DNA of 8,431 nucleotides, taken from positions 1 to 8,431 of the IMG/VR virus record IMGVR_UViG_2713896773_000016, one strand, 5' to 3'. This document shows, piece by piece, positions 65 through 7,594 of the stretch; positions within the stretch are counted from its first letter, which is position 1, and every line of letters begins with the position of its first letter. The stretch is from a virus. Its lineage: Duplodnaviria > Heunggongvirae > Uroviricota > Caudoviricetes. The notes beneath the pieces are model-generated. The model was not told the origin of the DNA, searched no databases, and saw only the letters and a program-made list of their open reading frames with translations. The translations under genes were made by a program, and so were the position numbers.

Positions 65-1366
65 TTAGCTCTCATTCCCGCGCTCATGCAAGCTCCGGCT
101 GTAAACAGAGTCAGCCGGCATTTCTACGCGCACGGAAACGAAATGATCGGCAGGGATATCTACCGGCTCCCCCTCTTCGATTCCGTCTCGTTCATTTCTG
201 GCGAATACTGGGGCGGTTGGATATGTGCGATGATAAGTTCTAACCAAAATGGAACCGTCCGCATTAACTTCATAATCGAGCCAAATCAGCGGCTGCTTGT
301 TGCGGTCAGTGGGGATATCAAAACCGCCGTCTATGCCTCCCCACGCGGCATCAGCATTAAGCCCCATACAGCCTTCAATGAGATATGCTCCGGTATTAAT
401 ACGGGTTACAGTGCATCCTGCTGACTCATCGTTTAATTGAAATTCACCATCAGAATAAATCTTAACAATCGGAGAGGCAGACTTTATAAATCCACTACTA
501 TCTACCGTTGTGTTTTGGTCCGTCCACATTCTGGTTCGCCATGATTCTGTATTAACATCTACTCCAGAAGCTTTAGTCTGTTTGCACACAACACCAACAT
601 TTTTGGACGAGCTATTGGCATACCAAGTAAAGGCGAAGTTGTTCACACCCTCGTTTGTTTTTGCCGTCAGTTTACCTTCATGACCAGCACCACCAAAACC
701 ACCTGCTGATAAACTTGAATAGTACCAGGAAAAAGAATTTTCACTCTCCGCTGCCGATAGAGGCGGGGCCTTAACAGGGGTGCCAAAACCAAAATCGCCT
801 AAAGAAAGAATATCTCCGGATGTGCTGTAAGCATTGCGTGTGGCGCTACTTCCTAAACCGAGGTTTGTGCGAGCGGCTTCTTTGGTTTTTGCGCCGGTCC
901 CACCCTGGTCAATACTCAATGCTGTACTTAGCCCTTTCAGCTCTGTGATATCGCTATTTGCCCCTTTCCGGGCGAGACCACCGATGGCAGGAATGCTGAG
1001 GCTGGTGCCGTTGATTGTCACAGTGACCAGTTGGTTCGCTGAGGTACTGGCGAACGTTTCCCACGCACCGATATTCTCGTCATACTCATTGATGAGCTGA
1101 GACATGGCCTGTGCCAGTCCATCAACCGAGATAATGTCTGATACCAGAATGCCGTACTTCTGGCCGCTCAGCGCCGGGGAAGCAGCTGGAGTAACCGTCA
1201 TTGACGTGGCGCTATTCACGGATGAAATCTGGAACATCTGAACCGGGTTAGACATGACAATAATCGTCTGGCCAGCGCGAACCTGGCTGGCCGGTGCAGT
1301 CCAGTTTGTACCGGAGCCGGTTGCGGTATTTCCGTTAATAGAGATAGTTCCGGTGCTATAAATCAT
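65..1366 (-). CDS. Phage tail fiber protein (side tail fiber / receptor-binding fiber), 433 aa
   Basis: Seen: ORF 1366->65 with AGGAG 5 nt upstream of the ATG (minus-strand reading AGGAGTTGTTATG). The translation has a Gly/Thr/Ser-rich N-terminus (MIYSTGTISINGNTATGSGTNWTAP...) and the motif LSIDQGGTGAKTKEAARTNLGLG (aa 150-172, plus ~851..917). Established/inference: from memory this QGGTGA...AR.NLGLG motif is recurrent in enterobacterial phage tail fibers; position directly downstream of J agrees. The C-terminal ~140 aa has no motif I recognise. Confidence 0.7.
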   Translation of the reverse strand: MIYSTGTISINGNTATGSGTNWTAPASQVRAGQTIIVMSNPVQMFQISSVNSATSMTVTPAASPALSGQKYGILVSDIISVDGLAQAMSQLINEYDENIGAWETFASTSANQLVTVTINGTSLSIPAIGGLARKGANSDITELKGLSTALSIDQGGTGAKTKEAARTNLGLGSSATRNAYSTSGDILSLGDFGFGTPVKAPPLSAAESENSFSWYYSSLSAGGFGGAGHEGKLTAKTNEGVNNFAFTWYANSSSKNVGVVCKQTKASGVDVNTESWRTRMWTDQNTTVDSSGFIKSASPIVKIYSDGEFQLNDESAGCTVTRINTGAYLIEGCMGLNADAAWGGIDGGFDIPTDRNKQPLIWLDYEVNADGSILVRTYHRTYPTAPVFARNERDGIEEGEPVDIPADHFVSVRVEMPADSVYSRSLHERGNES

Positions 1367-1486
1367 AACAACTCCTAAATTTAGACAACATGAAGCCCGG
1401 AGAGGTATATAACCATCACCAGAAATAATTTCTGAATTGGTTTTTAATACATATTGGGCAACCTTCCAATTGTGTTATAGACTACT

Positions 1487-1520
1487 AAATATTAACCCCT
1501 CAAAAGAGGGGTTAATATTT
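1487..1520 (-). terminator. Perfect 15-bp inverted repeat with 4-nt loop (AAATATTAACCCCTC-AAAA-GAGGGGTTAATATTT), a terminator-like hairpin overlapping the J stop codon
   Basis: Seen: plus 1487-1501 is the exact reverse complement of 1506-1520. The GC core CCCCTC/GAGGGG is followed on either strand by a U-rich stretch (minus RNA ...GAGGGGUUAAUAUUUAGUAG). The J stop codon (1520-1522) sits at the edge of the stem. Inference: intrinsic terminator and/or RNA-stabilising stem-loop at the 3' end of J, possibly bidirectional. Confidence 0.5.
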
Positions 1521-4500
1521 TAACCTGTGAATGAACCAGATCCGTGTGATACTATGATAGTAGGAGAAGAAATGGACGCACCCCTGCCATTTTGAGCGGA
1601 CACTTTAATACTTACTGTTACGTCTGGGCCTGTCACAACCGCAGAATGCATGATAAGTCTATCTGTGTCTTGCACGGATGAACCACTCTCATTACCGTTG
1701 ATATTGATTATTCCCGCACCATTACCTTTAACGTTTGCTATAACACAGACGTGTCTTGCGTGCCCAGAACTGGATGAATCCTTATAAGTCATTACCTTTT
1801 CTAAAGATCCATCGTTATCCCGACTCACATTCGTCCCTGTGTGCATATTTGCAATGTCCCCGATAAAACTTTGGGCTTCCACAGTCCCTTTGAATTTACC
1901 GCTTGTTGCTTGGATCTCACCAGTAAAGCTACCGCCACTAGCATATACTACACCTCTGACGGTCACATTGTTGAATTCAGCATCTCCAGCTTTATTCAAC
2001 TTCCAACCAGCAGAACCAGCTGCATAGTTGTTGGACTGGATATAGTTGCCGATTTTGGCGTTCTCAATGGTGCCGTCCTGGATGAAGCTGGCCCGGATGA
2101 ATGTCTGCCCGTTCTGGATCACGAACGGCAAAGCTACGCTATTTCCGGCTGCCGTGGTGACGGCGAAGCGGTCAGCCAGGAAGATAACCTGCGACTGCAT
2201 GCCGGATGGCGTATTCTCCACGCCGATACCCATCCCCGCGGCGTAATACTGCCCGTTGCTGGAGACACCAACCTTGATGTTATACATCGCGCTGAGTTCG
2301 CCATTAACGTTGGCTATAGCCTGAGCGTTAGTGGTGATGGCGGAGGTATGCCCGTTCACGGTCGCCGTGATGCCGTTTATCTGCGTGGCGGTGGCCTGCT
2401 GATAGTCGGAGAGCGTCTGATTCAGGCTGTTGATGGATGCCTTGTTGCCGTTGACGTCCGTCCGCAGGCTCAGCAATGAACGTGCTGTGGCTTCCTTCTC
2501 ACTGACGATCACCTCGTCGAGACGATCCAGCTGCGCACTGTTACCGGCGACCGTTGCGGAAAGCCTTTTGCGTGTGGCCACCTGCGCCAGTCCGTTCTGG
2601 ATAATGGCAATGGCTGAGTTCTTAACCCCGCCCGTCATGCCGTCCATAGACACGCTGATGCTGTCGATTCGCTGGCCCAGCGCGGTATCAGCCGTTGCGA
2701 CGGTCTGCTCAAGATCTGATAGAGAGGACGACACATCACCGACCGTGCTCGAAAGCTCATTAACACTGGTCTGAACCTGCCCAATGTCCTGCGCGTTTTT
2801 TGCGATTTCCTGCGCCTGGAGCTCAAGTTCATCGTTGGCCTGTTTGATGTCGTCAGCCATGCCAGCAATTTTTTCATTGCTGTCCACCGCGTTCTCGATC
2901 AGGTCTTTGAACGTATCGGAGTCTTTAATTTCCTCCAGAATCACATCTGTGATATCGGAAACATCGATGCTGGCCTGTCCTCGCACCCATTCTGTGTACC
3001 CTGATTCGTTGCCGCTGCGGTCCACCAGCTGCGCGCGGTACCAGAAAATCTGCCCAGCCTTAAGCCCCATCTGCTGATAAAGTTTCTGCGGATACGGTAC
3101 AGATGCCAAAAGCATAGGATTCGAACCGTCAGCGGCAATGCTGTATTGCAGTTCAGTGCTCAGGGTGTCGCCGGTATTAGCCGGGAATCCCCAGGTGACG
3201 TTGATTCCGAATACGACGTCTTCGGAGGCCTTAAGCCCGACAGGTTTGGGTACCTCACCCGCGCGTCCCTTCAGGTGTGTAAGCGCGGAAGTTGCCCAGA
3301 GACTCGATGCGCCGCCGGAGTTGATCGCGCGTACACGGACCAGATAATCACCCTCGAAGATGCCAGGCACTTCGATATTGCGAAGACCGGTCTCCGGTAC
3401 GTTAACCCACTCATTGTCGCCGCGCTTCCACTGCACCCGATAGGCTATGACATCCGCCTGTGGTTTGCCGTTCTTGTCGACCGGCGCATCCCAGGATGCC
3501 GTCAGGGTAGCCACTCGCTGCCCCTGGCGCACTGCGTCATAGCTCGCTACCACGATATTGGTCGGCTGGTTGACGAGGCCGGTTGGTATCAGACTAATTG
3601 GCGGCGTGTCCAGGCGGGCATTGTTATCGACCGCATCATATTTTGATGCGTTATATTCGGCCCCGGTGATAGTGAAGGTGTTTTCTTCATCATCAAATCT
3701 CAGGTTCGTAACGCGGAAGTATTGCAGGCGCAACTGCCCTGCATCGATGACGAATACAGCGTTAGGTAACGGCTCTGCCGTGAAAGGCGTGGCGATCACC
3801 AGCTGCGTGCCGTTTACGGCCTGGATCACCCTGCTTTCGACGGTACCGCCCCGTGTGCGGATCATCAGTGTGTCACCCGCAACGGCACTGGTTCCCCGAT
3901 CGGTTGTCACAGCCTTCAACCCGGCGTTATATCCGGTTATACGCCCGCCATAAACACGCCCTGAAAGGCGTTCGTCAGCAAATGCAAACACGGTACCCGG
4001 CACGTAGACATAGCCATCAAGCCCGGTCTGTAGCGTAATAATCCGGTCGAGTGAGTTGGAATACACCGCCCACCCGCCACGGCGCTGTGCTTCGCTCTCG
4101 CGCGTACAGCCGATTGCGGTGATCTGCGTCTGCTTAAACTTGAACTGCTTAACCAGGTCCGGGAACATCACCGCTGTTGTGCGGTCCTGATAGTGATTGT
4201 CAGGGTCGCTGAAGTTAATCAGCGCGCTGGAGAAGCGGGTCTTTTCACTGCCGCTCGAGTAAACCGGTTTGCCCACCACCGAAGCGCGGGTAAGGATTTG
4301 CAGCTTCGACGTATCCGCCGGCATGTCCGAGACAACATTGAACATGTTGTTGCCCCAGAAAGTCATTCCGTTGAAGCCCGCGGCAATATCTTTAATCACC
4401 TGCCAGGCATCAGCCTGGGACTGGATGTAAACGTCAAACATGAAGCGTGGCTCGGTACCGCTTCCGCCTTTCCCGTCGGGTACCTTCTGGTCGCAGCGCT

Positions 4501-5434
4501 GGGCGATGCGATAGAGCTCCCACTTATCGAGCATTTCTGGCGTCACGCGGCGCCCAAGGCCGAAGCGCGGCTCAGTCAGAACATCGAACCAAATCCACGC
4601 CGGGTTATTCGTCCAGCCCCATTTAAACGTCCCGTCCCATGTTCCGCTATAAGTCCGCGCTATTGGATCATAGTTCGAAGGGATTCGGATGATGCGCCCC
4701 TTCGGCATGCAGGAAATCTTAGGGATGTTGTTGAATGACTTTGCGTTAAAGGACACGTACAGCAGCGCTGTGTGTGGATATCGCAGGCGAGCATCGATCA
4801 CTTCAGTAATCGCTTGCACCTGCGTTTTGTTCTGCAGCATCTGGCTGGTGCTGTCATCGGTGTCACGCACCACTCGAATTTGCCAGCCAGTGCTGGCTTT
4901 GGGAAGATTAATACGGTGGGTTAGTTCATAGAGCGAGCTGAGCTTCTCTGTGACGGTTTTCGTCATGACTGTCGAGTAAGCGCCACCGTCCACCGCCAGA
5001 TCAATATGGTACTGAACCGTAGTGCCGACAATATCCCCATCGTTTTCCTGCTGCTGTAACCCAGGGATGCCAATACGAACCAGCACCGCGTCAATCTGGG
5101 TGTTACTCAGTGCGCGGGTCCATGGTGTGGCCTTTGTCAGCGATACCCCAACCGTAGTTTCATTCTCGACTGCAGGGAATCCCGGTATTGGTGTCTGGGT
5201 CTGTGTGCCAGGCCGGAAATCCCATGACACATTTTCAAAATTCATCGTTCCGTCGGGGTTTCCCAACGGCGTACCGTCCAGGAATATCCGGGTCGCATCC
5301 AGGCCACCAGCAAACTCCCCCTCCCCGAGCGCCAGCAGCATGCGGCAGCGCGCCATTGACTGCGCCGAATCGGGCTGTTCTACAGGTGTGTGCTGCTTCT
5401 GGCTGCCACCCTTTGCACCAGTGATCGCTTCCAT
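1520..5434 (-). CDS. J: Host specificity protein J (central tail fiber / tail tip protein), 1304 aa
   Basis: Seen: 3915-nt ORF. Translation matches remembered lambda gpJ blocks: N-terminal KGGSQKQHTP (lambda KGSSKGHTPRE), QNKT, YSGTWDGTFK (lambda YSGIWDGTFK), CDQKVPDGKGGSGTEPRF (lambda CDQSVPDGFGGTEPRI), a fibronectin-III-like segment (aa ~640-720) and QYYAAGMGIGVENT...VIFLADRFAV (lambda HYVAGIGLSMED...FLVAANRIAF). Established: gpJ forms the tail tip and binds the host receptor through its C-terminal domain. Confidence 0.92.
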   Translation of the reverse strand: MEAITGAKGGSQKQHTPVEQPDSAQSMARCRMLLALGEGEFAGGLDATRIFLDGTPLGNPDGTMNFENVSWDFRPGTQTQTPIPGFPAVENETTVGVSLTKATPWTRALSNTQIDAVLVRIGIPGLQQQENDGDIVGTTVQYHIDLAVDGGAYSTVMTKTVTEKLSSLYELTHRINLPKASTGWQIRVVRDTDDSTSQMLQNKTQVQAITEVIDARLRYPHTALLYVSFNAKSFNNIPKISCMPKGRIIRIPSNYDPIARTYSGTWDGTFKWGWTNNPAWIWFDVLTEPRFGLGRRVTPEMLDKWELYRIAQRCDQKVPDGKGGSGTEPRFMFDVYIQSQADAWQVIKDIAAGFNGMTFWGNNMFNVVSDMPADTSKLQILTRASVVGKPVYSSGSEKTRFSSALINFSDPDNHYQDRTTAVMFPDLVKQFKFKQTQITAIGCTRESEAQRRGGWAVYSNSLDRIITLQTGLDGYVYVPGTVFAFADERLSGRVYGGRITGYNAGLKAVTTDRGTSAVAGDTLMIRTRGGTVESRVIQAVNGTQLVIATPFTAEPLPNAVFVIDAGQLRLQYFRVTNLRFDDEENTFTITGAEYNASKYDAVDNNARLDTPPISLIPTGLVNQPTNIVVASYDAVRQGQRVATLTASWDAPVDKNGKPQADVIAYRVQWKRGDNEWVNVPETGLRNIEVPGIFEGDYLVRVRAINSGGASSLWATSALTHLKGRAGEVPKPVGLKASEDVVFGINVTWGFPANTGDTLSTELQYSIAADGSNPMLLASVPYPQKLYQQMGLKAGQIFWYRAQLVDRSGNESGYTEWVRGQASIDVSDITDVILEEIKDSDTFKDLIENAVDSNEKIAGMADDIKQANDELELQAQEIAKNAQDIGQVQTSVNELSSTVGDVSSSLSDLEQTVATADTALGQRIDSISVSMDGMTGGVKNSAIAIIQNGLAQVATRKRLSATVAGNSAQLDRLDEVIVSEKEATARSLLSLRTDVNGNKASINSLNQTLSDYQQATATQINGITATVNGHTSAITTNAQAIANVNGELSAMYNIKVGVSSNGQYYAAGMGIGVENTPSGMQSQVIFLADRFAVTTAAGNSVALPFVIQNGQTFIRASFIQDGTIENAKIGNYIQSNNYAAGSAGWKLNKAGDAEFNNVTVRGVVYASGGSFTGEIQATSGKFKGTVEAQSFIGDIANMHTGTNVSRDNDGSLEKVMTYKDSSSSGHARHVCVIANVKGNGAGIININGNESGSSVQDTDRLIMHSAVVTGPDVTVSIKVSAQNGRGASISSPTIIVSHGSGSFTG

Positions 5435-5489: not shown

Positions 5490-6083
5490 TCAGATGTCTT
5501 CAGCGACTATGCCTGCACTGATGATGGCGCCGCCAATCTCACGGACGCCATAGAGAAGCGCGACCGGGCTTCCCATCGCAAGGGTATTCACCGAGCCACC
5601 AAAGGCATAAGAGGGTTTATTGTCAGGGTCGTCTCGCCCCTGTAACCCTTTGGGCTGAGGTGATAGCATCTGGTAAATGCCGCCTGCCATCATTGACGCG
5701 CCCGACATCGCAAGGCCTGTGCCAAACGTAGCCAAAGTACCGGAGCTAAAGTAAGAAATTGCGATACCAGCCACCACCATCACAGCGCCCAGGATGGTCT
5801 GAAATACTCCGGCTTTTTTCGAACCTTCCATAATCGGCGCAATGCGGATATCACTGTCTCCTGCCAGCTCCTGGAAGTCCTGAGTGCCGATATTCCTTTT
5901 TCCGCGAAACACCGCGAAGATCATGCCATTTTTTTTGGCATTCATCAGATAATCTTCCAGCCCGTCGAAGTTGATACACAGGGCTTTGACCGCTTCGGCA
6001 GATGTCTGCACTGCCAGTTTATGCACACGCCCGAAGCGGGCGCCCAGTGCGCCATACAGACGAATGGTGGTTAAACGCGCCAT
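5490..6083 (-). CDS. I: Tail assembly protein I (lambda gpI-like), 197 aa from the preferred start
   Basis: Seen: the track ORF is 5490..6170, but the ATG at 6083-6081 is preceded by AGGAGA with 7-nt spacing and overlaps the K stop (6071-6073) by 13 nt, typical translational coupling. Translation MARLTTIRLYGALGARFGRVHKL... with an internal hydrophobic Gly/Ala-rich stretch (GVFQTILGAVMVVAGIAISYF). Established/inference: position between K and J plus family-like features support gpI; I could not align to lambda gpI from memory residue by residue. Confidence 0.8.
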   Translation of the reverse strand: MARLTTIRLYGALGARFGRVHKLAVQTSAEAVKALCINFDGLEDYLMNAKKNGMIFAVFRGKRNIGTQDFQELAGDSDIRIAPIMEGSKKAGVFQTILGAVMVVAGIAISYFSSGTLATFGTGLAMSGASMMAGGIYQMLSPQPKGLQGRDDPDNKPSYAFGGSVNTLAMGSPVALLYGVREIGGAIISAGIVAEDI

Positions 6084-6802
6084 GGCTTTATCTCCTGCGG
6101 CAGGTATTTGTGACGAACGCAGATCATCGTGCGGTCTTTGAAATAGCCACGGGCATAAGGCGTGACACACGAGGGCTGGCCGTAAAGATGGTGCAGCAGT
6201 TCGCCTTCTTCAGTGATGATGCCCGCATGGTTCCACTTATCCGAATCAACCTGCATGATGACCATGCAGCCTGGTGCCGGATCGCACTCGACGAATCCTT
6301 CCCGTTCCCAGTTATCAAAATAGAGGTTGTCCGGGTACTGGCTTTCCCACCACGGGTAATCGACGCGAAAATCGTTCAGCGTGACGCCCTGAATGGCGTG
6401 CCAGTCCATAATCAGCCCCCAGCAGTCATTCGAGCCCAGGATAAACGGACGCCCAATAAGCGGCACCGCCTCCGGCATTATCTCGGCGTATTCATCGCTG
6501 TCCGGAGCGTAAATACCCCATACCAAGCCGGAGTTGTTGCACTGCTGGCGGTCCAGATCTGACGGAATAGGCCGGGCACCGTCGCCCGGGTGGGAGTGGA
6601 TGACGCGAATAATCGTCCCGATATCTTCGGCGTTAGCCCAGTGCTCGCCGTCGATGCGAAAATGTTCTGTCGGATTTTCGTGCGTATTCGGCACGGGAAT
6701 GTAGCGCTGGCGACGGCCAGACTGAATAACGAAGCCACAGCACTCACGCGGGGATTCCTCCAGTGCATGCGCCCGGATAGCTGCCATTATGGTTTTATTC
6801 AT
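6071..6802 (-). CDS. K: Tail assembly protein K (lambda gpK-like; MPN/JAMM-type motif plus NlpC/P60-type Cys/His motifs), 243 aa
   Basis: Seen: translation aligns with remembered lambda gpK: IRAHALEESPRECCGFVIQSGRRQRYIPV...PTEHF (lambda IRAHAAAEYPRECCGVVAQKGRRQRYFP...PTEHF), HSHPGDG...S..D (lambda HSHPGG...S..D), NDCWGLIMDW (lambda TDCYTLFRDAY), NHAGIITEEGELLHH (lambda NHAAIYCGDGELLHH). The ATG at 6802-6800 lies 13 nt downstream of the moron terminator and has only a weak SD. Confidence 0.92.
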   Translation of the reverse strand: MNKTIMAAIRAHALEESPRECCGFVIQSGRRQRYIPVPNTHENPTEHFRIDGEHWANAEDIGTIIRVIHSHPGDGARPIPSDLDRQQCNNSGLVWGIYAPDSDEYAEIMPEAVPLIGRPFILGSNDCWGLIMDWHAIQGVTLNDFRVDYPWWESQYPDNLYFDNWEREGFVECDPAPGCMVIMQVDSDKWNHAGIITEEGELLHHLYGQPSCVTPYARGYFKDRTMICVRHKYLPQEIKPWRV

Positions 6803-6844: not shown

Positions 6845-7594
6845 CTAGATGGTTATGGAGAGGTCGGGCCTAACCTTTTTCCTGAGAATGTATTTGCTAA
6901 TGCCAGTCCGTAACGCGGCCTCTTTAAGTTGCATTTTTTCGCCATTCAAAATTACGTAAGGGATTCGGTTTCGTACAGGTTTCGCTAACGCATCTTCGGC
7001 ATTCATACCGGCGTTTAGTCTGTTGTAAAAAGTTGACTCTTTCATGCCATTTGTTTGCCATGCTGCGCTCATAGTTACCGACTCTCCGCTCACGACAACT
7101 TTATGATTATTGCGCTTGTTGCGACCTTGCTCTGTAGCATTTGCCCATCGACAATTGTCTGGAGAATAGCCTTTATTGTTATCTATGCGTTCAATTGAGA
7201 ACCCTTTAGGCTTCTCACCCATGTCATGAGCAAAATTCACGGGGTTGCTCCATTCATCGCAGACTGTTATACCCCGCCCGCCATAGTGGGGAAAGTCCTT
7301 GCAAGCAGGATTTCGACAGCGATCAAGCATAGATGTCCAAGACGAATATCCTGAATAAGCTGTGATTGGCTTGCCATTATGCAGTTTTGTTATTTTTTTC
7401 TTATGATAACAGCCGCAAGAAACAACAGCGCCACTACGGAGTGACCCCATGGAAATGCTCTTAACAACACCACATTCACAAGAGCACAAAAAGTATCTGA
7501 GACCTTTTGTTTTTATATGGCTAGGGGCTTTGGTTTCTTTAATAATTGTAAGATAGCCGTACTTTTCACCCGGAAAAATAGTAATGCGTGACAT
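6845..7594 (-). CDS. Accessory (moron) gene inserted between L and K: 249-aa protein with a Cys-rich zinc-ribbon-like N-terminus, an HNH-like endonuclease-related core and C-terminal HTH-like modules
   Basis: Seen: ORF with SD GAGG 5 nt before the ATG (minus reading ACGAGGTTTATATG), flanked by 99-bp and 42-bp non-coding gaps and followed by its own terminator. Motifs: CSCECG...SCGC (Cys cluster); YSGYSSWTSMLDRCRNP...HYGGRGITVCDEWSNPVNFAHDMGEKPKGFSIERIDNNKGYSPDNCRWANATEQGRNKRNN; C-terminal VILNGEKMQLKEAALRTGISKYILRKKV. Established/inference: from memory this YGGRGI..C..W...F..DMG..P.G.S..RID.N..Y.P.NCRWA...EQ..N pattern is a widespread phage family usually annotated as HNH endonuclease. The position where HNH enzymes carry the catalytic His reads E-R here, so nuclease activity is uncertain. 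Confidence 0.6.
   Translation of the reverse strand: MSRITIFPGEKYGYLTIIKETKAPSHIKTKGLRYFLCSCECGVVKSISMGSLRSGAVVSCGCYHKKKITKLHNGKPITAYSGYSSWTSMLDRCRNPACKDFPHYGGRGITVCDEWSNPVNFAHDMGEKPKGFSIERIDNNKGYSPDNCRWANATEQGRNKRNNHKVVVSGESVTMSAAWQTNGMKESTFYNRLNAGMNAEDALAKPVRNRIPYVILNGEKMQLKEAALRTGISKYILRKKVRPDLSITI

Follow-up and report, generated by a model that had tools for sequence, protein, structure and literature searches.

The alpha-helical shaft of a lambdoid central tail fibre protein J and its probable helix-to-sheet refolding

The J gene and its surroundings

The window analysed here is a stretch of 8,431 nucleotides from a virus of the class Caudoviricetes (IMG/VR record IMGVR_UViG_2713896773_000016). 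Its tail genes were arranged in the order L-K-I-J and were followed by side-fibre genes, as is typical of the lambda-type tip protein TipJ. The genes upstream of J encoded Phage_tail_L, JAB and NlpC/P60 (K) and Lambda_tail_I products, and a tail fibre gene (positions 65-1366) was located directly downstream. The J gene and its C-terminal domain were placed as follows:

1520..5434, minus strand: gene J, central tail fibre / tip attachment protein, a 1304-aa open reading frame
1928..2341, minus strand: Pfam Phage_Tail_Tip (PF09327) domain of J, aa 1032-1169, E-value 1.4e-49

The J protein possessed the N-terminal hub and the subsequent FNIII domains of a lambda-type TipJ (Pfam E-values 1.2e-44, 1.3e-11 and 3.8e-05) and, in its C-terminal part, the PF09327 beta-prism domain. 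The Pfam families recorded were FNIII-A_GpJ (PF24801), Phage-tail_3 (PF13550), fn3 and Phage_Tail_Tip. The PDB sequences matching J were those of the F2-pyocin fibre, phage T1 gp33 and lambda J.

The product of the side-fibre gene did not match the side fibre of pyocins. Instead, it matched PDB 7z47 ('Putative tail fiber'), and its N-terminal domain also matched the corresponding domains of PDB chains with the name 'Depolymerase', which are adaptor domains of Klebsiella phage depolymerases.

An HNH endonuclease gene was found between L and K. A disruption of gene L, listed as an open reading frame of 149 aa, was considered and rejected, as L is intact and continues past the end of the window. 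Several plus-strand and other-frame open reading frames overlapped positions 2272-2932, and the simplest reading of these was shadow ORFs inside J.

Composition, helices and length of the shaft

The peptide strings quoted in a preliminary description of this DNA were found in J residues 835-1055 (positions 2270-2932), a segment which had been called rich in Ala, Ser, Gln and Leu. The segment contained Ala (12.7%), Ser (10.4%), Thr (8.6%), Ile (8.1%), Asn (8.1%), Leu (7.7%) and Gln (7.2%). Pro, Trp and Cys were absent from residues 820-1060, whereas Pro accounted for 4.3% of the remaining J. The following parts of the shaft were delimited:

2282..2962, minus strand: whole alpha-helical shaft, aa ~825-1051, without Pro, Trp or Cys, helical in the single-sequence AlphaFold2 (AF2) model, longer than in lambda J by a net insertion of 177 aa
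2645..2917, minus strand: helix 1, aa 840-930, coiled coil of canonical heptads without a break
2633..2644, minus strand: helix break or kink, aa 931-934 (DGMT, with GG next at 935-936), in the single-sequence AF2 model
2282..2632, minus strand: helix 2, aa 935-1051, heptads imperfect and shifting in register, candidate region for fold switching

The coiled-coil-like appearance of the segment, noted previously by eye, was borne out. Helix 1 contained 11 heptads in one register with no interruption, the 'a' positions being occupied by I856, I863, L870, I877, I884, V891, V898, L905, V912, L919 and I926. The period-3.5 hydrophobicity power of residues 840-930 was equal to 15.8, when shuffled sequences gave a mean of 1.0 and a maximum of 6.7 (0/1000 as high). 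For residues 935-1051 the power was only 4.2 (p ~0.018; shuffle mean 1.0), and several register shifts were observed. Single-sequence AF2, which was run on a monomer of a trimeric assembly, predicted helices at 840-930 and 935-1051 with a moderate pLDDT of 70-83. Heptad periodicity and predicted helices free of helix breakers were thereby found together in J, as in coiled-coil shafts.

The folding of both helices back on each other in the monomer model was regarded as an artefact. A PDB fold search with the single-sequence model gave no match at E <= 0.001, the entries retrieved being generic antiparallel coiled coils (SMC, chemoreceptors) only. The matches of the segment to the Pfam families BLOC1_2, Filament and PEARLI-4 were below the gathering scores and were set aside as compositional coiled-coil matches rather than homology.

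The shaft was also homologous to an experimentally resolved trimeric coiled coil. In the F2 pyocin fibre (PDB 25vf), residues 908-1109 aligned with J residues 865-1074 (domain E-value 6e-11), and residues 907-1084 of this fibre are a trimeric coiled coil by cryo-EM (PMC13455828; bioRxiv 10.64898/2026.02.24.707460).

In the alignment, the kink of J fell approximately where the F2-pyocin shaft is kinked. In F-type pyocins three side-fibre trimers bind this coiled-coil kink, as seen in the F2 and F7 structures, and side fibres are required for the assembly of the F7 fibre. With a side-fibre gene directly after J, the long shaft, and especially its kink at 931-937, might be thought to serve mainly for anchoring the side tail fibres (65-1366). 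Such a main role appears very improbable, since an acidic patch (Asp950, 951, 953, 954 and 961) makes up the kink of the pyocin, when the break of J reads SMDGMTGG and shows no acidic docking kink. [quoted passage not shown] A docking role is nevertheless compatible with the fold-switch model that is preferred below.

The length of the shaft was compared with that of lambda J. By BLASTP, J residues 10-869 aligned with lambda J 4-858 (29% identity) and residues 1048-1194 with lambda J 860-997, and the Pfam Phage_Tail_Tip domain started at 1032 in J and at 845 in lambda J. Hence, in the pairwise alignment that the preliminary description had proposed, the segment was not of equal length in lambda. 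The net insertion in J amounted to 177 residues, with alignment on both sides of this gap, and explained the whole size difference of 172 residues (1304 versus 1132), of which it had been claimed to account for most. The expansion had also been described as absent from lambda J, but the element itself is present there, as lambda J has a short homologous alpha-helical shaft (AHS) at residues 809-861 (PMC11101478). Therefore, the J segment, which is far longer than the lambda equivalent (~220 versus ~53 residues), is a roughly four-fold expansion of an existing shaft element and not a new insertion.

Nor was the segment a peculiarity of this J protein. It was 94.6-96% identical, with an equal length of 221 aa, in HK97 (96%), mEpX1, HK633, HK75 and mEp235, and was present in at least 58 phage records at a coverage of at least 80%. 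The linker lengths of 75 full-length relatives, taken from a 50%-identity representative library after a homologue search had given only partial proteins of <900 aa, ranged from 37 to 3710 aa with a median of 461 aa, and J was placed at the 25th percentile. Long shafts are thus the rule, and it is lambda that stands out by a short one.

Repeat units and predicted folds of the shaft

Further features were found within the shaft and at its junction with the beta-prism:

2672..2767, minus strand: 32-aa block, aa 890-921, absent from HK639 J in the alignment
2396..2491, minus strand: 32-aa unit ATARSLLSLRTDVNGNKASINSLNQTLSDYQQ, aa 982-1013, one predicted beta-hairpin (strands 5 and 6), duplicated in mEp043
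2213..2671, minus strand: antiparallel beta-meander of 10 strands, aa 922-1074, as predicted by the alignment-based AF2 model, strand plus turn recurring every 16 residues
2213..2296, minus strand: first two constant beta-prism strands, aa 1047-1074, predicted non-switching 'seed', beta in both AF2 models

When AF2 was supplied with an alignment of only 59 sequences, mostly 50-95% identical, J residues 922-1074 were predicted as beta strands with a pLDDT of 70-89, while helix 1 was still helical with low confidence. The turns of the predicted meander were located at DG, NG, AG, EKE, NG, DYQ, NG, VNGE and NG, and the NG/DG positions were conserved. Two folds were thus predicted for the same residues, a helix from the single sequence (935-1051) and beta strands from the alignment (922-1074), by monomer predictions rather than by the trimer CF-random protocol of He et al. 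In a PDB fold search with the beta model, 8xci and 8xcj alone reached significance (E-values of 4e-6 to 5e-5), with low TM-scores (0.16). Both entries are the lambda central fibre in its open LamB-bound state.

The segment was also enriched in the relaxed pattern SxSxxMxxLxS. Counted in either orientation, 15 matches were present in J residues 835-1055, when shuffled sequences gave 4.2 +/- 2.0 (0/2000 reached 15), and the density was 6.8 per 100 aa versus 0.74 elsewhere in J. The expression used was permissive, and helix 1, being a heptad repeat, matched it as well at a spacing of 7 residues. Forward and reverse copies alternated each 15-17 residues (950, 967, 982, 999 and 1014) and coincided with the predicted strands, in agreement with the alternating strands of He et al. 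The strands at 1047-1074, where the homology to lambda J resumes (J 1048 corresponds to lambda 860), were in the place of a seed, a concept of prism growth taken from PMC12874032.

The self-similarity of J was best at an offset of 32 aa (score 71, when the shuffle maximum was 56). The offsets 64, 96 and 128 were also top-scoring, and among these only 96 (score 62) exceeded the shuffle maximum. A unit of 32 residues has the length of a single predicted hairpin, and 32 is not divisible by seven. An exact tandem copy of unit 982-1013 was found in mEp043, resulting in a length series of HK639 (-32), J and HK97 (0) and mEp043 (+32). It was tentatively suggested, for the three close variants to which the exact +/-32 statement applies, that the shaft might evolve by gain or loss of exact 32-residue hairpin units, with selection keeping the register of the refolded state; we are rather doubtful of this. 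Each extra unit would add a four-residue stutter to the coiled coil, which may be a source of metastability. If this is true, the stroke length and the stored energy of a non-contractile tail trigger would be tunable via hairpin units. Multiples of 16 in the linkers of distant relatives were dropped as unreliable owing to anchor extrapolation errors and inserted domains.

A simpler explanation of the shaft would be a stable trimeric coiled coil which sets only the reach of the fibre, for example so that it clears O-antigen or capsule and arrives at a receptor in the outer membrane, and does not refold. The textbook heptad coil of helix 1 agrees with it, as do the hugely variable linkers of the relatives, which a length-tuned spacer predicts, and the Pro-free, heptad-rich linkers of 700-950 aa in several of them. 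It is unlikely for J, as the heptads of helix 2 are poor, yet its 16/32-residue organisation is strong and its NG/DG turns are conserved. Moreover, the natural indels come in 32-aa units and not in multiples of 7, AF2 goes to beta strands once it is given an alignment, and the homologous coil of F7 pyocin refolds, its activity requiring the refolding (PMC12874032).

It might equally be argued that J residues ~922-1051 are always a prism, as in the CSF of lambda, and that the coiled-coil look is a compositional artefact. The pLDDT of the alignment-based beta model was slightly above that of the helical one, and AF3 gives a beta-prism outright in 30% of related phage proteins (He et al., PMC12874032). 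We regard a permanent prism as highly unlikely, because a coiled coil is present in the resting particles of F2 pyocin, in two independent cryo-EM studies, and of F7 pyocin, in a third. The F2 coiled-coil region aligns directly with the J segment, and residues 935-1051 combine a weak but significant heptad signal with an absence of Pro and a confident single-sequence helix.

Of a refolding shaft we are moderately confident: residues ~825-1051 of J would be alpha-helical, resting as a trimeric coiled coil and refolding in part to a beta-prism at receptor engagement. In F7 pyocin, a homologous 163-residue coil turns into a beta-prism upon cell contact, and mutations preventing the prism abolish killing (PMC12874032, preprint). 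By analogy, the shaft of J is probably a spring-loaded helix-to-sheet switch and more than a passive spacer. The lengthening of the central fibre shaft, which had been proposed previously, agrees with the aligned pyocin region being a trimeric shaft, but is probably only half of the function. The switch has been shown only for F7, which is a pyocin rather than a phage J, and the same switch was predicted in 21 of 24 phage central fibre proteins, HK639 being among those modelled (PMC12874032). The AF3 predictions for HK639 and mEp390 are given in Extended Data Fig. 9a of He et al. 2026, according to whom lambda and T5 are without an equally extensive switch (PMC12874032).

What was observed in J itself comprises coiled-coil character, homology to a solved shaft, the dual prediction and the 32-residue periodicity with its indels. 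The following sequence of events was proposed. In the virion, three J chains would most likely associate in parallel as a trimeric coiled coil, from which the beta-prism and the receptor-binding end would hang ~30 nm below the tail tip, as estimated from a rise of ~1.5 A per residue (the 53-residue shaft of lambda gives ~8 nm). Helix 1 (840-930), a regular heptad coil and likely the non-switching or 'spine' part of the shaft, would be followed by the kink (931-937) and by helix 2 (935-1051), built of 16-residue units with a small-x-small-x-x-middle-x-x-Leu-x-small pattern of alternating orientation. Receptor engagement would trigger the refolding, as judged from the homologous central fibre of F7 pyocin. 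The coiled coil of helix 2, possibly together with the last part of helix 1, would then become an antiparallel beta-prism growing off strands 1047-1074. Such refolding would shorten the fibre, free the FNIII domains sealing the tip, open the tail tip and drive the ejection of the tape measure and DNA. The triggering in J could differ from that in the pyocin and HK639, because J has its own HK97-type receptor-binding end, when the proteins of the pyocin and of HK639 stop sooner and rely on adhesins that are separate.

The energy source of non-contractile tails for breaching the cell envelope is a long-standing question, and the pyocin structures of 2026 propose the coiled-coil shaft as an energy store. 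Here, every predicted switch signature is carried by a lambdoid J of E. coli type which has a receptor-binding end of its own. The HK97-type phages, with tractable genetics, close relatives and -32/0/+32 variants, offer a convenient test system for the switch in infection. In annotation, a long Pro-free, Ala/Ser/Thr/Asn-rich stretch ahead of PF09327 in J is a normal shaft and no anomaly.

Comparison with known central fibres

Lambda gpJ has its AHS in the same place as the J shaft, between FNIII-2 and the beta-prism central straight fibre, but of ~53 residues versus ~220. BLASTP similarity between the two was undetectable past the first ~45 residues. The AHS of lambda is a three-helix bundle clamping the FNIII trimer, and upon LamB binding it flips and partly turns to beta strands atop the prism (PMC11101478).

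The central fibre protein of phage T1, gp33 (PDB 9l9p), is J-like and aligned with J residues 3-1155 (E-value 8.6e-224). [quoted passage not shown] The T1 shaft (821-1172) is unresolved in the structure, and its receptor-binding arrangement is unlike that of J.

HK639 is the phage closest to the window, and its J protein (YP_004934053) was 90% identical to J overall, with the hub, the FNIII domains, helix 2 and the prism start alike. Its shaft is 32 aa shorter, lacking the counterpart of J residues 890-921, so that the linker is 186 aa versus 218 aa in J. The HK639 protein has a length of 1154 aa and lacks the HK97-type C-terminal domain, and two small genes come next, whereas J carries its own C-terminal end (1200-1304). 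J residues 1-850 were ~95% identical to HK639 J, and residues 800-1200 were 96-100% identical to HK97 J (gp24), of which the N-terminal 750 residues were only ~50% identical to J. By these identities, J is a mosaic of an HK639-like N-terminus and an HK97-like C-terminus, with a recombinant junction near the start of the shaft. The likeness to HK022 is known here from one figure alone, a nucleotide identity of 88.5%.

The central fibre of F-type pyocins (PA0641 / PyoF10; PDB 25vf, 25vj and 26ci) was homologous to J over the full length (E-value 1.6e-259), with a shaft identity of only ~25-30%. Upstream of its coil the pyocin carries an inserted Pro-rich domain which J does not have, and the acidic side-fibre docking kink and separate adhesin proteins of the pyocin were not seen in J either. 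In the pyocin fibre, a long and kinked trimeric coiled coil precedes a beta-prism. The long coiled-coil shaft of J is real and, rather than being a new kind of element, is already known from phage HK97 and from the F-type pyocins.

Tail-tip genes of the window

A lambda-like tail-tip module was found to be encoded on the minus strand of the window, with the following genes:

L: runs off the window end, minus strand, intact
HNH endonuclease open reading frame: 6845-7594, minus strand, 249 aa, phrog_374 (E 2.8e-59)
K: 6071-6802, minus strand, JAB and NlpC/P60 domains
I: 5490-6170, minus strand, tail-tip gene
J: 1520-5434, minus strand, 1304 aa
Side tail fibre gene: 65-1366, minus strand, 433 aa, phrog_1591

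The HNH reading frame, for which no Pfam match was obtained, lay between L and K. Since K directly follows L in HK639, it looks like a mobile or homing-endonuclease insertion within the tail-tip operon. The side fibre was chimeric in character: residues 12-97 resembled the N-terminal domain found in PDB entries whose chains are named 'Depolymerase' (7lzj, 7vz3, 7vyv), and residues 152-418 resembled the 'Putative tail fiber' 7z47 (E 1.6e-81) and Pfam Phage_tail_C_2. Only 64 nt of the window lie beyond this gene, too few for a tail fibre assembly gene. Among 5426 complete E. coli genomes, the best match to the whole window was strain ABWA45 (~93% identity over 84%), and the proteins related to the C-terminus of J were mostly from Enterobacter; the window may therefore derive from a host other than E. 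coli.

The helical shaft of J and its counterpart in lambda

The segment comprising J residues 835-1055 (window 2272-2932), in which the peptides quoted in the preliminary description were located, is an alpha-helical shaft of the central fibre. It was enriched in Ala, Ser, Thr, Asn and Ile, and Pro, Trp and Cys were absent from residues 820-1060. Residues 840-930 formed 11 heptads without interruption, with I, L or V at each 'a' position, and the hydrophobicity power at period 3.5 was 15.8 against a shuffle maximum of 6.7. The periodicity was weaker in residues 935-1051 (4.2, p about 0.018), where several register shifts occurred. Single-sequence AlphaFold2, used as a monomer prediction of moderate confidence, returned helices at 840-930 and 935-1051 (pLDDT 70-83) with a break at 931-934. 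In the virion, the shaft very likely exists as a coiled coil of three chains.

The full-length J protein matched four solved proteins, namely the F2 pyocin central fibre (PDB 25vf, E 1.6e-259), the J-like gp24 (PDB 23gd), phage T1 gp33 (PDB 9l9p) and lambda J; the shaft alone was matched to residues 908-1109 of 25vf (domain E 6e-11). In a BLASTP comparison with lambda J, residues 10-869 were aligned with lambda 4-858 at 29% identity and residues 1048-1194 with lambda 860-997, leaving a net 177 extra residues placed exactly at the transition from the last FNIII domain of lambda to the beta-prism. The Pfam Phage_Tail_Tip domain spanned 1032-1169 in J and 845-972 in lambda. The heptads, the helix prediction and the alignment gap confirmed the coiled-coil-like expansion that had been described, and the segment was not of equal length in lambda. 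It had been credited with most of the size difference; since the proteins of 1304 and 1132 aa differ by 172 residues, it explains the whole. Its reported absence from lambda needs correcting, as lambda J has a 53-residue three-helix 'alpha-helical shaft' at residues 809-861 (PMC11101478).

Origin and distribution of the shaft

Window positions 958-3229 were ~88% identical to HK97, HK022, mEp235 and related phages by megablast, and HK639 covered most of the window. J residues 1-850 were ~95% identical to HK639 J, and residues 800-1200 were 96-100% identical to HK97 J. Judged by these identities, J is a mosaic, HK639-like to about residue 850 and HK97-like from about residue 800, and its shaft is a near-copy of that of HK97 J. 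The crossover (window about 2900-3200, residues about 750-850) coincided with the boundary at which FNIII-2 ends and the shaft begins.

Further, 107 phage records matched the 221-residue segment by tblastn, with a coverage of 80% or more in 58; on such matches, the shaft is not peculiar to this J. A search of 1.84 billion cluster representatives with residues 720-1200 gave 3311 hits at E <= 0.001. The linker, measured from the end of FNIII-2 to the start of the prism in 75 full-length proteins, was 37-3710 residues long (median 461), the 218 residues of the window J falling at the 25th percentile. Many long linkers were Pro-free and heptad-rich. Although this sample is skewed to proteins whose shaft is like that of the query, it shows long shafts to be common and places lambda at the short end.

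Among the relatives with long linkers (P0187, P0248, P0244, P0161 and others) were J-like proteins as large as 4797 aa, in which FNIII-2 and the prism lay 2000-3700 residues apart. Some linkers of 700-950 aa contained 0-0.1% Pro with heptad coverage of 80-95% (e.g., P0161, 909 aa), which would imply coiled-coil shafts of >100 nm; the longest contained 2-3% Pro and probably include extra domains. A Pro-rich block of ~50 aa near the shaft start, with the rough consensus YDPxxxYxxGxxVxxxxxLYQAxxxVPxxxxPPNxxYW, was present in many relatives (P0140, P0144, P0180, P0194, P0217, P0245, P0171) and missing from the window and HK97 J proteins; it is presumably the counterpart of the 'insertion domain' described for the shaft of the F2 pyocin.

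A putative fold switch and its 32-residue unit

[quoted passage not shown] He et al. reported an SxSxxMxxLxS pattern in every strand and predicted that 21 of 24 central fibre proteins from phages would switch likewise, with AF3 predictions for HK639 and mEp390 (Extended Data Fig. 9a); demonstration of the switch is confined to a pyocin and to a preprint (PMC12874032). Matched in either orientation with a permissive regular expression, the relaxed pattern occurred 15 times in J 835-1055 against 4.2 +/- 2.0 in shuffles, and forward and reverse copies alternated from residue 950 to 1014 at a spacing of 15-17 residues.

When AlphaFold2, again as a monomer prediction of moderate confidence, was supplied with a modest alignment of 59 sequences, helix 2 (935-1051) was gone and a 10-strand antiparallel meander of residues 922-1074 was obtained (pLDDT 70-89, 16-residue period), its turns falling on DG/NG positions conserved in the alignment. 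Significant PDB fold matches of the meander were confined to the open LamB-bound lambda central fibre (8xci, 8xcj; E 4e-6 to 5e-5), with low TM-scores, as expected for a lone chain of a trimeric prism. That the shaft region is a constitutive prism was considered highly improbable; a coiled-coil resting state is strongly favoured.

The shaft probably serves as a metastable element, refolding onto the prism after receptor binding. This full switch model is moderately probable, and a purely passive spacer is unlikely. The short lambda shaft also converts in part from helix to sheet upon LamB binding (PMC11101478), so the long shaft looks like an expansion of this switchable element. [quoted passage not shown]

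The segment resembled itself most when shifted by 32 residues (score 71, shuffle maximum 56). Offsets 64, 96 and 128 were among the top-scoring diagonals, of which only 96 (score 62) exceeded that maximum. In the mEp043 J protein (L004), the 32-aa unit ATARSLLSLQTDVNGNKASINSLNQTFSDYQQ (J residues 982-1013, window 2396-2491) was perfectly duplicated in tandem; this unit corresponds to predicted strands 5 and 6, that is, one hairpin. HK639 J was without a different 32-aa block (residues 890-921), and segment lengths in close relatives were 189, 221 and 253 aa. Natural shaft variants differ by exactly 32 residues, extra in mEp043 and lacking in HK639; this length corresponds to a pair of 16-residue strand-plus-turn units and is not divisible by seven.

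[quoted passage not shown] Both the structural class of the element and the mechanism proposed for it appeared in print in 2026 for close homologues; the hairpin unit of 32 residues, evident from self-similarity and from natural indels, is the one modestly new point.
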